Assembly (NCBI GenBank): GCA_964422195.1
Contig: CAYRAF010000002.1
Span: forward strand, 3,513-63,257
Source: an uncultured Muribaculaceae bacterium
Lineage (GTDB): Bacteria > Bacillota_I > Bacilli_A > RF39 > UBA660
Direction: 5' to 3'
DNA length: 59,745 nt
The notes beneath the pieces were generated by a model. The model was not told where the DNA came from and ran no database searches. It worked only from the letters and a program-made list of their open reading frames with translations. Each line of letters opens with the position of its first letter. The stretch's first letter is position 1. Of this stretch, positions 15,202 through 19,771 are shown piece after piece. The translations under genes and the position numbers were made by a program.

Positions 15202-15810
15202 TTAATCTACAACTTTTATTGAATTTATGACAGGTTGTTTTTCATATTCAATTGTTCCATTCTGATCAATTGGAGTAGCATTTTCTACTATTTTATCTAC
15301 AACTTCCATACCTTCAGTAACATGACCAAATGCAGCATAATCACCATCTAAGTGTAAACTATCTTCATGAACAATAAAGAATTGTGAGCTAGCTGTATCA
15401 TAGCCTTGTGCTCTAGCCATAGATATTACTCCCCTTTTGTGAGAAATTTTATTCTTTACTCCATTATTCTCAAATTCACCTTTTATAGTTACTTTGCTAC
15501 CTCCAGTACCATTATGATTAGGATCTCCTCCTTGAATCATAAAATCTTTTATAATTCTATGAAAAGTAAGTCCATCGTAAAACTTATCATTTACTAAATT
15601 AATAAAATTAGTAACTGTTATAGGGGCAGTATCAGCATCTAATTCTAATGATATAGTACCATAATCTTTAACATCTATAACAACATAATGCTTACCCGAT
15701 AAATATTGATCATTTTTTATTTTTTCTGATTCCTTTTCTATATTTTCGCATCCACATATGATAAATATAGAAGTTAATAAAATTAAAAATAGTTTAAAAT
15801 ATCTTTTCAT
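15202..15810 (-). CDS. ppiB: cyclophilin-type peptidyl-prolyl isomerase, lipoprotein
   Basis: Motifs FHRIIKDFMIQGGDP and SMAR...SQFFIV. I chose the start at MKRYFKLF, which is preceded by AGAGGTG. A signal peptide with Cys (IICGC) is present. Confidence 0.85.
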   Translation of the reverse strand: MKRYFKLFLILLTSIFIICGCENIEKESEKIKNDQYLSGKHYVVIDVKDYGTISLELDADTAPITVTNFINLVNDKFYDGLTFHRIIKDFMIQGGDPNHNGTGGSKVTIKGEFENNGVKNKISHKRGVISMARAQGYDTASSQFFIVHEDSLHLDGDYAAFGHVTEGMEVVDKIVENATPIDQNGTIEYEKQPVINSIKVVD

Positions 15811-15865
15811 ATTACACCTCTTATTAATAATACCATAAAAAAACATAATATGTAATATTTTTAAA

Positions 15866-16429
15866 CTATTTTGTACTTAATGTTTTTATTTTATTATTTA
15901 TTTGCTCTATAGTTATAGGCTCTAACGTAAAAGTATCATATCTAGGAATCATACTATAATTGTTTTCTAAAAATTCTATACACTCCCTATATATACATAA
16001 ATTACTAATTTCATCATTTATATTGACACTACTAAAGTCTTTCCTTTCTATTGGAAAGATTATACCTTTAAAGTTAGACATAAATATATCACTTTTACAT
16101 CTTACCTCATCTAACATATCACTAACAGAATTATCATTAGTTTCTTCTTCAGTAAAGTATGGAGTATATACCTCTATATCTCTAGATACTAATATAGATG
16201 GAGAATATAATACAAAATGTTCAAATGAAGATAAATATGATGGAATTGATTTTATTCTAGGATCACATAGACATATTTCATTTACAGGAGATCTATCATA
16301 ATTATAATTATAGGTATTATCTTTTGATATCTTACCTAATTTAAATATATCTATAAGTGCATGAGCATTGTTTTTATTACCATGATAACCACCAGTCGCA
16401 TGTAAATAATAATTATCTAAATTCATCAT
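15866..16429 (-). CDS. hypothetical protein, paralog A of a tandem pair (possible H-Y-E ADP-ribosyltransferase-like fold)
   Basis: Shares NLDNYY[LI]HATGG, F.[HF]FVLYSP..L.SRD.E and [DA]EVR.K.D blocks with the upstream paralog. No family was recognised with certainty. Confidence 0.55.
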   Translation of the reverse strand: MMNLDNYYLHATGGYHGNKNNAHALIDIFKLGKISKDNTYNYNYDRSPVNEICLCDPRIKSIPSYLSSFEHFVLYSPSILVSRDIEVYTPYFTEEETNDNSVSDMLDEVRCKSDIFMSNFKGIIFPIERKDFSSVNINDEISNLCIYRECIEFLENNYSMIPRYDTFTLEPITIEQINNKIKTLSTK

Positions 16430-16433
16430 TTTA

Positions 16434-17087
16434 CTACATTCCCTTTAAATATATGATATGTCCATTCACTTCTCCTGAGGTAATTGTTCTTCCAGAATAT
16501 AAATCTAATACTGGAATATTAGAAAAATTATTTTCAATAAACTCAATATTATTTTTAAATATTTCTAAATGCCTTATTTTTCTATCTTGTGATGTATTTG
16601 TTCTTCCACCAATTCTTAAATCTTCATAAGCTGAATGAATGGGAAAAGTAATGGCTTGCAGTTTATCCAAAGATAAATCTCCTTTATATCTTACTTCTGC
16701 CTCCATATCCGCTACCATATCACCTTTTCCTTTGTCATGAGAAAGTCTTGGGATATGTATCTCTAAATCTCTACTAAATAATAAACATGGGGAATATAGA
16801 ACAAAAAAATCAAAAGCTGATAAGAATCTACTTTTAGAATATGGATTATGTCTTCTTGTATCTACTAAACAAACATATTCAGCTGGACTGTTAATATAGT
16901 TTCTGTTTTTACCTTTATTCTTATTTACTAAAATTTTTCCATCTTCCAATATTTTTATAATTCTATTCTCATCATTTGTTTGACCTAGTATTCCACCAGT
17001 TGCATGTATATAATAATTATCCAAATTCATAAGAGAATGTTTTGCGTGATTGCCACTTGATTCTATATATGTTTTTCTATCAACCAT
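16434..17087 (-). CDS. hypothetical protein, paralog B of the tandem pair
   Basis: Contains the same conserved blocks as 15866..16429. A good RBS (AAGGGG) precedes the ATG at 17087. Confidence 0.55.
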   Translation of the reverse strand: MVDRKTYIESSGNHAKHSLMNLDNYYIHATGGILGQTNDENRIIKILEDGKILVNKNKGKNRNYINSPAEYVCLVDTRRHNPYSKSRFLSAFDFFVLYSPCLLFSRDLEIHIPRLSHDKGKGDMVADMEAEVRYKGDLSLDKLQAITFPIHSAYEDLRIGGRTNTSQDRKIRHLEIFKNNIEFIENNFSNIPVLDLYSGRTITSGEVNGHIIYLKGM

Positions 17088-17187
17088 ATAATCCCCTTCT
17101 TTTTAAAAACTTGCTATATTATACCATAAAATACTTAAAAAGTAAAGTTTAACAAAAGAAAAGAGCACTTTTATAAGTGCCTCATGT

Positions 17188-18066
17188 TTAGTGTATTCTT
17201 CTAAAAAATGATAATACTTTTTGTTTTTTCATCTCTTTTCTTCTTGCTTTTTTCTCTTCATCTGTATTACTATAGTATTCCCTAGGCTTTTCCTTATATT
17301 GAAACTTAAACTCTTCTGGAATAACTCTATTAAGTTCATCTTCCAATTTTTTACTTTTTCTAAAGTAGTAACAGTTTCCATGTTTTGATAATATAGATGA
17401 GTGTTGTGGACAAAAATAACGATCAAAAGTCTTTCCGGCACTCCATTCTCCTGTTGGAAAATATCCTATTTTCTCTAAAGAAAGTCTAGCAAAAGTTGCA
17501 ATTTTATCTAATTCATTGAAACTAACTACTTCATTTTTTAAATTATATAAAACAATAGCTTTACACATTTCATCACTTACATATTTACGCTTGCTATCAA
17601 TAGATTTTTCTACTTTTTTGGTGAAATCAGCAATTTCTTCCTCCATTATAGAAGAAGATATTACTTTTGATTTTTCTTTTGGAATTCCAGTTAATGCTTT
17701 CTTTGTTCTTATATCACTATCTTCGCTAGTAAAATAAAGTTTCTTATATTCGTCCCCAAAATTATTTGGATTATAAAATTTATTAAAATATAAAGCTACC
17801 GCTTCATCCTGATAAATTAAATATGGTAATAATTTAAAGGGATTTATTTTTCTTCTTAAAACTTCATTGGAAATATAAAAAACCATTGCTTCATCACGAT
17901 ATTCTTTATTATGCACTGTCATATCATAAATACAATCTTCTCCACCAATAATATTTTCATAGAAAGTCGAAGAGACATATTGATTATTGTCTAATAATCT
18001 TGCTAATGTATCTACATCATTGTTATTTAAATACTCATCAATTACTTCTTTTTTTGCGATATTCAT
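17188..18066 (-). CDS. hypothetical protein
   Basis: Long ORF with a Lys-rich C-terminus. I moved the start to the second ATG (MNIAKKE) because the GAGGTGG RBS abuts the first ATG. Confidence 0.55.
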   Translation of the reverse strand: MNIAKKEVIDEYLNNNDVDTLARLLDNNQYVSSTFYENIIGGEDCIYDMTVHNKEYRDEAMVFYISNEVLRRKINPFKLLPYLIYQDEAVALYFNKFYNPNNFGDEYKKLYFTSEDSDIRTKKALTGIPKEKSKVISSSIMEEEIADFTKKVEKSIDSKRKYVSDEMCKAIVLYNLKNEVVSFNELDKIATFARLSLEKIGYFPTGEWSAGKTFDRYFCPQHSSILSKHGNCYYFRKSKKLEDELNRVIPEEFKFQYKEKPREYYSNTDEEKKARRKEMKKQKVLSFFRRIH

Positions 18067-18118
18067 ACCATCCACCTCGGTTAGTTATTATAATATAAAA
18101 CCCCAAAAAAGTAAAGGA

Positions 18119-19771
18119 TTAGTCTATTAAACTAATCCTTCTGATTACTTCTTCTTTTCCAAGTAATTTCATTATTTCATATAAATCTGGTGTCATTGAT
18201 CTTGTTGTAATTGCTACTCTAATAACTGTAGATACATCTGCGACATTGCCTTTAAAATTGTTTGGATTTTCTTTGTATTCTTTCATATTTGATGCATATC
18301 CAAGCTCATCACATAATTCTTTTACCTTATTAAACCATGTATCCTTATCATCAGATTCATCATAATACTTATCTAAGTATGTATGACAAATTGTCTTTAT
18401 TTCTTCTTTATCAGTTATATTACCAAAGTCATAAGTTTTATCTTCTTTATCAAATAGTTCTTTATACATATACCATACTTGGTTTTTAACATCAGAATAA
18501 TTAACGAAGTCTTTTCTTGGTTTCTTTTGTTCTCTTTCGATATTAAATAAACTTATAGAGAAATCTTTATACTTTTCTAATAATTCTTTAAACTCAGAGT
18601 CATATTCTTTTGTCCAATTATATACTTCATTATATACCTCTTCTGCTTTCATACGACTTATGATGTTTCTAGATATATTATCTAGTTTTTCTAAGTCAAA
18701 GAATGCCCCAGATGATGACATTTTCTTAGGTGAATACTGAAAATCAGTAAATTCCAAATCAGGATGAGCAGTATGCCACTCTTCATAGTTAGAGTTAATA
18801 ATAGTCATTAATGCTTCAATTACAGCTTTTGTTGGATATCCTTTTTCTTTGTAATAAGTCATAGTTGCTTCTGGATCTTTTCTTTTGCTTATTTTACGTA
18901 CACTTTCTCCTTCTTTTTTTATGATTAAAGGAGTATGAACATATTTAGGAGCTTTATATCCAAAAGCTCTAAATAATTCAATATGCTTAGGTACAGATGA
19001 TAACCATTCTTCTCCTCTCACTACATGAGTTGTTTTCATTAAATAATCATCTACTAAGTGAGCAAAATGATATGTTGGAAGTTTATTACCAGCTTTCATT
19101 ATAACGAAATCTTCATCATTTTCTGGAAGCTCTAATTTACCTTTAACTAAATCTTCATATTTAAACTTTCTATCAAAATTACCTTCTGATTTAAAACGAA
19201 TAACAAAACTTTCACCATTCTTTATTTTTTCTGCTTGTTCATCAAGTGTTAGTTTTCTACAGTGTGCCCATTGTCCATAGTATCCTGTTCTAAACTTTCT
19301 TGCCTCTTGTTTACTTCTCATTTCATCTAAATCTTCTTTAGAACAAAAACATGGATAAGCTCTACCTATCTCTATTAAGTATTTAATAAAAGTATGATAT
19401 ATTTCTTTTCTTTCACTTTGTACATATGGCCCATAATTTCCTATGATTTCTCCATCATTTTCATATTCATCAGGCATAATATTGTAATGTTTTAGTGTAT
19501 CAAAAATAAGTTGTTTAGCTTCCTTCACTTCCCTTTCTTGATCTGTATCTTCAATTCTTAAGAAAAATATTCCATCTGAGTTTTTTGCCATCATATAATC
19601 AATTAAAGATTGAAAGAAACCTCCTAGATGAAAGAATCCTGTTGGAGAAGGTGCAACTCTTGTTACCTTTGCTCCTTCCTTTATATTTCTTGGCTTATAC
19701 ATTTCATCATAATACGCAATATCATGTTTAACCTCTGGAAAGATTAAATCTGCTAAATCTTTATTTGTCAT
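18119..19771 (-). CDS. gltX: glutamate--tRNA ligase (long form)
   Basis: Class I synthetase motifs APSPTGFFHLGG (HIGH) and KISKRK (KMSKS). Preceded by a T-box leader. Confidence 0.85.
   Translation of the reverse strand: MTNKDLADLIFPEVKHDIAYYDEMYKPRNIKEGAKVTRVAPSPTGFFHLGGFFQSLIDYMMAKNSDGIFFLRIEDTDQEREVKEAKQLIFDTLKHYNIMPDEYENDGEIIGNYGPYVQSERKEIYHTFIKYLIEIGRAYPCFCSKEDLDEMRSKQEARKFRTGYYGQWAHCRKLTLDEQAEKIKNGESFVIRFKSEGNFDRKFKYEDLVKGKLELPENDEDFVIMKAGNKLPTYHFAHLVDDYLMKTTHVVRGEEWLSSVPKHIELFRAFGYKAPKYVHTPLIIKKEGESVRKISKRKDPEATMTYYKEKGYPTKAVIEALMTIINSNYEEWHTAHPDLEFTDFQYSPKKMSSSGAFFDLEKLDNISRNIISRMKAEEVYNEVYNWTKEYDSEFKELLEKYKDFSISLFNIEREQKKPRKDFVNYSDVKNQVWYMYKELFDKEDKTYDFGNITDKEEIKTICHTYLDKYYDESDDKDTWFNKVKELCDELGYASNMKEYKENPNNFKGNVADVSTVIRVAITTRSMTPDLYEIMKLLGKEEVIRRISLID

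Follow-up and report, generated by a model that had tools for sequence, protein, structure and literature searches.

The window analysed here is a 59,745-nucleotide stretch of contig CAYRAF010000002.1 (assembly GCA_964422195.1, positions 3,513 to 63,257 of the forward strand). It was found to contain two adjacent genes, ORF B and ORF A (ORF, open reading frame), between a gltX gene and a peptidyl-prolyl isomerase (PPIase) gene. These genes are two diverged tandem copies from an array-forming clade of a cytoplasmic family of ~190-220-aa proteins. At a likelihood put at about 0.6, the proteins of this family probably have the ADP-ribosyltransferase (ART) fold in its H-aromatic-E type and use nicotinamide adenine dinucleotide (NAD+), the family being new and restricted to one lineage.

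Genes and signals at the locus

The locus was found to contain the following features.

15202-15846, minus strand: PPIase gene, ppiB-like, with a lipoprotein-type signal, downstream of ORF A (Pro_isomerase matched on the syntenic genes of the related loci L001 and L003)
15866-16429, minus strand: ORF A, 187 aa, short-form member of the 'HATGG' clade (ORF list; family hidden Markov model (HMM), E 1e-55), with H10 at 16402-16400 and D107-E108 at 16111-16106
16434-17087, minus strand: ORF B, 217 aa, long-form paralog (ORF list, BLASTP), with H28 at 17006-17004 and A130-E131 at 16700-16695
17118-17146, minus strand: promoter-like site before ORF B, TTTACT-17-TATAAT with a TG extension (extended -10), from a consensus scan
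17164-17181, minus strand: terminator-like hairpin with a T-run, immediately 3' of ORF C, between ORF C and the B-A pair
17188-18066, minus strand: ORF C, 292 aa from an ATG with the Shine-Dalgarno sequence GAGGTGGA, or 295 aa from an upstream GTG
18087-18115, minus strand: promoter-like site before ORF C, from the consensus scan
18141-18113, minus strand: hairpin before the ORF C promoter-like site, overlapping the end of gltX
18119-19771, minus strand: gltX (glutamyl-tRNA synthetase), upstream (tRNA-synt_1c Pfam match on the syntenic L001 gene)

The paralogy of ORF A and ORF B was observed directly, with 38% identity across 193 columns (BLASTP, E 1e-42), which is far beyond chance. Together with the ORF list, this confirmed the two adjacent paralogs of 187 and 217 aa with a 4-nt spacer that had been described in an earlier sequence-only reading of this DNA. 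The blocks named there as shared, NLDNYY[LI]HATGG, followed by GK[IL], S[AS]F..FVLYSP..L.SRD[IL]E and [DA]EVR[CY]K.D[IL]...I.FPI, were all present in the A/B alignment. The third gene of that reading, a 292-aa ORF located 100 nt upstream of ORF B in the same orientation and between gltX and the ppiB-like gene, was likewise found as described. The spacer between ORF A and the PPIase gene was found to be 19 nt.

A ribosome-binding site (AAGAAGGGGA) was found 3' of the promoter-like site at 17118-17146, ahead of ORF B. The promoter-like sites are consensus matches alone, their count not being enriched over shuffles, and the terminator-like sites numbered 5 against 1.1 expected in shuffles. Since the hairpin (17181-17164) and the promoter-like site (17146-17118) lie between ORF C and the B-A pair, B-A looks like a separate bicistronic unit and is probably its own transcript. 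No terminator-like site was found by the scan in the gap between ORF A and the PPIase gene, so that co-transcription is possible, and transcription of the B-A unit possibly runs on into the PPIase gene. The base composition at the locus was uniform at ~25% G+C and therefore gave no hint of a foreign island.

No meaningful match was found for ORF A, ORF B or ORF C in direct library scans of Pfam, NCBIfam, PADLOC and PHROGs, the sole library match being a sub-threshold one of ORF B to DUF5846 (E 0.013). ORF C is a true orphan, an unrelated neighbour that is neither a member of the family nor a conserved neighbour of it. Among 5.8 billion proteins its only match was a near-identical copy of itself, and the family HMM gave no match to it at E<=10. 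The C-terminus of ORF C was found to be a basic tail (KKARRKEMKKQK...RRIH), and the gene fills the slot that is taken by extra array copies in related genomes.

Family extent, forms and conserved residues

ORF A and ORF B were found to have 11 close relatives. Searched exhaustively with a profile, 1.8 billion cluster representatives gave 102 matches to the family, and a profile search with distant members gave at least 338 family proteins, nearly all of 200-235 aa, none of which was found to bear a Pfam domain or an informative name. The word 'orphans' in the sequence-only reading was therefore correct as to annotation but not as to kinship, since ORF A and ORF B have at least 338 relatives; the one match of ORF C is its near-identical copy. 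When whole genomes were scanned, the family was present in 13 of the 201 genomes of the order (about 6%), all 13 belonging to one GTDB family, and was absent from all ~380 genomes scanned in other families of the class. The hosts are metagenome-assembled genomes of ~1 Mb labelled 'uncultured Bacilli'.

Two types were separated in the tree, a monophyletic 'HATGG / DEVRY' clade (100/100 support, long stem) and a 'DYISLCD / DEVQVKD' type. ORF A and ORF B were placed in the HATGG clade. A third, divergent copy on another contig of the same genome (G000:C45:323-850, plus strand, 176 aa) was placed in the other type; it was found to be of the ancestral 'DYISL...EVQVKD' kind, with LSR in place of LCD and GE in place of DE, and has comGB-like, prepilin-peptidase and mutS genes downstream. 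Ancestrally, the family is represented by single-copy genes set among housekeeping genes, from which the HATGG clade branched off as a rapidly diverging line whose 2-6 copies stand in arrays after gltX.

The HATGG clade is known only as tandem arrays straight after gltX, with 2 copies at the window locus, 3 in L001, 6 in L003 and at least 2 in L005, and with 6 copies in L004, whose short contig does not reach gltX. The order of gltX followed by the array was seen in L001, L002, L003 and L005, and gltX is the conserved upstream anchor in the genus. The number of tandem copies ranged from 0 to 3 across four genomes of the genus and reached 6 in metagenome contigs. The paralogs within the arrays were highly divergent (branch lengths ~1), positional orthologues being recognisable only between the two closest arrays, and this rapid divergence in arrays of 2-6 copies suggests a diversified acceptor specificity.

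Most members, ORF A included, were found to start at the strand that contains the conserved His, whereas in ORF B and a few others the N-terminus is lengthened by ~18 aa (18-19 aa in ORF B, modelled as two short strands). Exactly one such long-form copy was found in each complete array (L001, L003, L004 and the window). The extension of the long forms contained the pattern K.Y.IP, and the long forms were not monophyletic in the tree. L005 (CAZWZO010000152.1, 2612 nt) is labelled 'uncultured Muribaculaceae' and was found to contain a 3' part of gltX very like that of the window, followed by two HATGG-clade copies; the contig probably belongs to the Bacilli lineage and was mis-binned. Three copies in other genera were found to carry one in-frame stop each, TAA in G120:C35:5955-6554, TAA in G119:C1:32119-32697 and TGA in G155:C24:5206-5760, and these are probably pseudogenes, with gene loss under way.

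Column counts were taken over 108 aligned members, and the conserved positions are given in the numbering of ORF A/ORF B.

His10/28: 106/108
Asp56/76: 105/108
aromatic [FY]69/92: 106/108
aromatic [FY]72/95: 107/108
Pro90/113: 105/108
Asp104/127: 105/108
Asp107/130: 107/108, the sole exception being ORF B (Ala)
Glu108/131: 108/108
Pro126/149: 108/108

A basic K/R residue was found at A83/B106 in 95/108 members, located past the aromatic segment, and a Lys four residues past the Glu was also conserved. The most distant members, those in NAD operons included, were found to keep the His and the D-E motif, while Asp56 was lost in several of them. No Arg or His was conserved family-wide at a position collinear with R51 or H119 of DarT in this alignment.

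The feature set of an H-Y-E type ART, a His in strand 1 (106/108), an aromatic residue (106 and 107/108 at the two positions), which in such ARTs stacks on the nicotinamide, and a Glu (108/108), is therefore present by sequence. As judged from the alignment, the H...aromatic...E layout is real, at aromatic positions other than the one chosen in the sequence-only reading. The Tyr of 'VLYSP' that had been put forward there was present in only 37/108 relatives, and the Thr of 'HAT' in only 12/108 (Ile in 87), so that neither stands as a conserved residue, while the proposed His and Glu were borne out.

Predicted fold and comparison with known ADP-ribosyltransferases

The AlphaFold2 model of ORF A, made with a 12-sequence alignment, reached a predicted local distance difference test (pLDDT) value of 84.9 and a predicted template-modelling (pTM) score of 0.83. 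The model of ORF B, made with the 108-sequence alignment, reached 87.7 and 0.88, respectively; this larger alignment includes the 12 close homologues behind the ORF A model. In Foldseek searches of the PDB, the list for ORF A contained M. tuberculosis DarT, Arr, mosquitocidal toxin, Thermus DarT (query template-modelling (TM) score up to 0.42), pertussis S1 and CC0527 (DUF952). The list for ORF B contained ARTs at all of ranks 1-9, with yeast Tpt1 (7yw4) as the best match (E 0.016, prob 0.91, TM 0.50 on the target), together with four Thermus DarT entries, M. tuberculosis DarT, cholera toxin A and LT-A, and with Arr at rank 17. The structural check proposed in the sequence-only reading thus gave two lists dominated by ARTs, in which even the best E of 0.016 was not significant. 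Matches in BFVD reached a prob of 1.0 at E about 1e-3, but these were to uncharacterised viral proteins and were of no help for the fold. The support for the fold consists in the enrichment and the consistency of weak matches.

Both models were found to contain, in order, a strand with the His, a helix, a strand, a helix, a strand, short strands, a long loop, a strand with the Glu, a further strand and a helical C-terminal extension. The ART core of DarT has six strands, with helices between strands 1-2 and 2-3 (PMC9967889), and the modelled order of the family would fit such a six-stranded core.

Profile comparisons with DarT were made with five true DarT genes, found with the Pfam model in 300 genomes of the phylum. 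The motif order given for DarT in the sequence-only reading agreed with these fetched proteins, which contained [FY]H[FC][ST]...G.[IL]...FYF.P..P...AE[FV]. A 99-sequence family profile compared by hhalign with the five DarTs scored 24.8 in local and 23.2 in global mode (P 2e-4, prob 21%). None of 150 column-shuffled DarT profiles (maximum 17.3 local, 6.1 global) and none of 27 unrelated natural families from the same genomes (maximum 18.1 local, 8.9 global) reached these scores, DarT being the first of the 28 natural profiles in both modes. DarT and Tpt1, a true inter-family ART pair, scored 27.6 and 13.5, so that the family is about as similar to DarT as one family of the superfamily is to another. 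The alignment paired DEV[RQ].K..ISL..L..ITFP of the family with AEVLV.N.IP..I..I of DarT, with the invariant Glu on the Glu of the conserved AE motif, and also paired the first helix (IL..G.I) with the first helix of DarT. When the family HMM was run against all ORFs of the fetched loci, the top non-family ORF was a DarT, and 4/5 DarT ORFs were present among the sub-threshold matches, with matching segments round the His and Glu motifs.

DarT (PF14487/DUF4433) is the single-stranded DNA thymidine/guanosine ADP-ribosyltransferase toxin of the DarTG system. DarT recurred as a Foldseek match of both models and gave the best profile-profile score, and the family resembles it in size (about 200 aa, single domain) and in the succession of a His strand, a helix ending in G-x-[IL], an aromatic segment, a long loop, a strand initiated by Glu and a hydrophobic strand. 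The family Glu, invariant in 108/108, is aligned with the Glu of the AE motif, and the catalytic Glu of DarT (E160) starts the strand after the ADP-ribosylating turn-turn (ARTT) loop. Unlike DarT, the family contains an insertion of ~8 residues between the His and the first helix, has no DarG or other macrodomain neighbour and none elsewhere in the genome, and occurs in tandem arrays or as single genes embedded among housekeeping genes, not in two-gene toxin-antitoxin modules. The essential Arg (R51) and the base-locking His (H119) of DarT have no demonstrable equivalent in the family (PMC9967889).

Membership in DarT/DUF4433 itself, as suggested in the sequence-only reading, was contradicted by the Pfam model. 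PF14487 (gathering score 22.5 bits) gave no match to ORF A or ORF B at E<=10, and a six-frame scan of the whole genome at the same threshold did not touch the A/B locus. DarT was also absent from the 25 most-matched Pfam families listed for the 108 relatives, no family was recurrent in either 37 or 108 relatives, and a single sub-threshold PF14487 match (E 0.021) was found among the 37.

The ART lobe of Tpt1/KptA (PF01885) resembles the family as the top Foldseek match of the better model (7yw4, prob 0.91), and in a local profile alignment the family His was placed on the His of the YHG motif of Tpt1, with an 8-residue insertion. Bacterial Tpt1 genes occur in operons of NAD/ADP-ribose metabolism, and some members of the family were likewise found in a NAD-metabolism operon (Tpt1 side: PMC8120803). 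Tpt1 has two lobes, with an N-terminal winged helix, and an R-H-R-R catalytic tetrad (PMC8120803). The family was found to contain neither the winged-helix lobe nor this tetrad or any conserved Arg set, its profile score against Tpt1 was not above the null level, and it keeps a catalytic-type Glu that lies outside the R-H-R-R set of Tpt1 (PMC8120803). PF01885 also gave no match in the genome itself at a cut-off of 1e-10.

Arr and the minimal H-Y-[ED] ARTs (CC0527/DUF952) are like the family in being small, single-domain, cytoplasmic and eraser-free, and both were present in the Foldseek lists. Their TM-scores were very low and the motif spacing differs, and the family carries a helical C-terminal extension of ~60 aa that sets it apart. 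Arr and these minimal ARTs act on non-protein acceptors, and no evidence was found that ties the family to antibiotics, as would be the case for Arr.

Genomic contexts and reading of the family

In ~15 distinct neighbourhoods of family genes no conserved partner, macrodomain, mobile-element gene or defence gene was found, most of the contexts being uninformative housekeeping genes. In two genera, G153 (L034, G153:C3:3635-6962) and G097 (L038, G097:C5), the family gene (X) was observed inside a tight operon of nadD - X - pncC (CinA) - nrtR (Nudix and NrtR winged helix-turn-helix) - nadK, with successive gaps of 34, 13, 40 and -4 nt. G097 was found to contain two tandem family copies within this operon, and in a third genus, G155, a Nudix gene adjoins the family gene. 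Such a placement is what would be predicted for a protein that uses NAD+.

The sequence-only reading had reported no macrodomain partner, and this was upheld on a wider scale. No DarG-type macrodomain was found beside ORF A and ORF B, the neighbours being gltX, ORF C and the PPIase gene, and no macrodomain (PF01661, E<=10), ARH or NADAR was found in the genome (assembly 88.6% complete). In the control DarT loci a macrodomain ORF (VLVNTVN..G.MGKGIA) was adjoining in 4/5. No phage homologue was found when two members were searched by tblastn against 50,697 phage records.

Aminoacyl-tRNA-synthetase genes were found at most two genes away from family genes in three contexts, with gltX, cysS and a class-II gene of the lysS/asnS type (window 18119-19771; L017-L021, L046 and L055; L045, L047 and L056). 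This proximity may be due to chance (about 1 expected, 3 seen) or to a link with tRNA. In one sub-lineage (L017-L021, L046, L055) the single-copy gene was found after a HerA-like ATPase gene (DUF87/HerA_C), with or without DUF362, on the same strand, and in some contigs the ATPase gene was directly adjacent, with a 45-nt gap. The pairing of an ATPase with a NAD enzyme recalls the Sir2-HerA systems, but the ATPase was rejected as a partner and treated as synteny, because it is confined to this sub-lineage.

The same genome was also found to contain three tandem paralogous ORFs of about 326-356 aa (G000:C14:4023-7062, plus strand), followed by a 170-aa ORF and trpS. These contain a DarT-like first motif, GYLYH[VI]T..N[VLI][DE]SIL..GIL[ST]LN, and were matched to DarT by hhalign (prob 89% over 30 columns) and weakly, at the N-terminus, by the Pfam DarT model (E 0.002 and 0.011). 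A Glu in a DIE motif was present in two copies and missing from the third, and the ORF A/B family HMM does not detect the array. Going by these motifs, it looks like a second tandem ART-like array near an aminoacyl-tRNA-synthetase gene.

For the ORF A/B family, the paralogy, the family extent, the conserved residues, the operon contexts and the absence of known erasers were observed directly, whereas the ART fold is inferred from weak but consistent evidence, as are NAD+ use, catalysis and the acceptor. In the proposed mechanism, NAD+ would be held in a cleft formed by the strand-1 His (H10/H28) and the aromatic pair [FY]69/92 and [FY]72/95. The Glu (E108/E131) of the D-E-V motif, which in the models opens the strand that follows the long loop, would polarise or cleave the nicotinamide-ribose bond, and ADP-ribose would then be handed to an acceptor or to water. 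The leading guess for the acceptor, by analogy, is a nucleic acid or a phosphate, because the nearest neighbours, DarT and Tpt1, act on nucleic acids. Just as open are a small-molecule acceptor, as for Arr, and simple hydrolysis of NAD+.

Several results weigh against an ART assignment. Foldseek searches of the PDB gave nothing at E<0.01 for either model, so that the fold is not established by score, and the query-normalised TM-scores were 0.26-0.42 with a large root-mean-square deviation. The hhalign probability for the family and DarT was 7-21%, the score against the Tpt1 profile fell inside the null range, the Pfam models of the ART clan do not detect the family, and sequence-profile searches of the PDB found no ART; the matches that one protein and three profiles did give there (ferritin, S6, troponin C and nsp3 Mac1) were at chance level and were rejected. 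The NAD-operon context represents one or two evolutionary events among ~15 contexts, and the conserved acidic residues D56, D104, D107 and D165 would also suit a metal-dependent hydrolase.

The last point leads to the rival that survives best, in which the proteins are a non-ART alpha/beta enzyme (a metal-dependent phosphoesterase or nuclease, for instance) and the ART-rich Foldseek lists and the DarT score are artefacts of weak similarity. This is rather unlikely but stays a serious rival because the structural scores are all weak, every structure match being below the usual significance. The conserved D56, D104, D107, E108 and D165 with the Lys four residues past the Glu, the lack of an ART Pfam match and the uncharacterised viral proteins at the top of BFVD are all in keeping with it. 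Against this, ARTs top the two PDB lists obtained from separately predicted models (12 close homologues being common to both), and no hydrolase or nuclease family recurs in those lists; on this account a PD-(D/E)xK or metal-hydrolase reading of the acidic residues and the E-x-x-x-K pattern was kept only as a minority rival. The first place of DarT among the 28 natural profiles in both hhalign modes also speaks for an ART, several distant members lose D56 yet keep the His and the Glu, and the NAD-operon context suits a NAD-binding protein. For the ART-like H...Y...E layout of the sequence-only reading, the Foldseek lists, the hhalign scores above controls and the conserved His and Glu thus remain in its favour, while its Thr and Tyr were lost.

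The sequence-only reading had gone further and suggested that ORF C or one of the paralogs could serve as neutraliser. In the rival that follows from it, the paralogs are DarT-type toxins that ADP-ribosylate DNA (or RNA or protein) in a toxin-antitoxin or defence module with an antidote other than a macrodomain. Such toxins agree with the evidence for an ART-like fold, in which DarT is one of the best matches, and with the fast evolution of the HATGG clade, its varying copy number (0-3 in the genus, as many as 6 in metagenome contigs) and the in-frame stops in copies elsewhere. Fast divergence, variable copy number and in-frame stops form a pattern that is typical of conflict genes. Each complete array that was read was found to have exactly one long-form copy, and the unique Ala before the Glu of ORF B could fit a modified, regulatory copy.

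However, neither the proteins nor, in the whole-genome scan, their locus is recognised by the Pfam DarT model, the genome is without macrodomain, ARH and NADAR in contrast to the macrodomain in 4/5 control DarT loci, and neither a PADLOC match nor a phage homologue was found. The single-copy relatives stand among housekeeping genes with no conserved neighbour, and the arrays of 2-6 paralogs contain nothing else inside, so that the ~15 contexts speak against a toxin-antitoxin architecture. ORF C as neutraliser is contradicted by its uniqueness to its own genome and its absence from the arrays L001 and L003, and by its own promoter-like site and the terminator-like hairpin and promoter-like site that split it from B-A. 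A DarT-type toxin is a distinctly improbable reading, because all DarT-specific membership features bar the Glu fail and no conserved partner was found, although rapid divergence and copy-number flux leave room for the arrays to have a role in conflict, which they may have.

A divergent macrodomain-like binder or hydrolase of ADP-ribose, in place of a transferase, can be set aside as very remote: the profile of the narrow clade gave a weak match to coronavirus nsp3 Mac1 (E about 0.5) whose resemblances (NxxN...GG..G, CL...P and an aromatic helix) are collinear, and two viral macrodomains stood low in the ORF A Foldseek list, but the Gly-rich loop and NxxN are restricted to the HATGG clade and missing from the wider family, which does not conserve the Gly-rich and G-[IV]-[FY] loops of macrodomains, the Pfam Macro model has no match in the genome at E<=10, hhalign against MacroD-type sequences was non-collinear and at null level (P 0.08-0.96), and a true macrodomain model should strongly match hundreds of PDB macrodomains, which neither model does.

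If the ART-fold assignment is right, the family would be an undescribed family of the ADP-ribosyltransferase superfamily, counting 338 members or more and covered by no model in Pfam, NCBIfam or PADLOC; if it fails, a conserved His/Glu enzyme that merits a domain-of-unknown-function (DUF) entry would still remain. The hosts of the family, gut-type Bacilli that are uncultured and have reduced genomes, lack every known ADP-ribose eraser. If the assignment is right, handles on the acceptor would be given by the placement in the nadD-pncC-nrtR-nadK operon in some genera and by the fast-diverging arrays beside gltX in others, and both contexts would bear on whether nucleic-acid ADP-ribosylation can serve a housekeeping rather than a toxic function.

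A wider picture, which is unlikely and offered tentatively, is that of a self-contained ART branch of small-genome (RF39-like) Bacilli with no known eraser, in which the single-copy gene would be wired to NAD salvage and NrtR. For the arrays, it would be a similarly doubtful proposal that they form a diversifying battery that modifies nucleic acids (for example tRNA, or invading DNA or RNA), or that regulates itself via interaction between paralogs. If this picture were true, the family would represent an ART-based system of a new kind, for conflict or for RNA modification.

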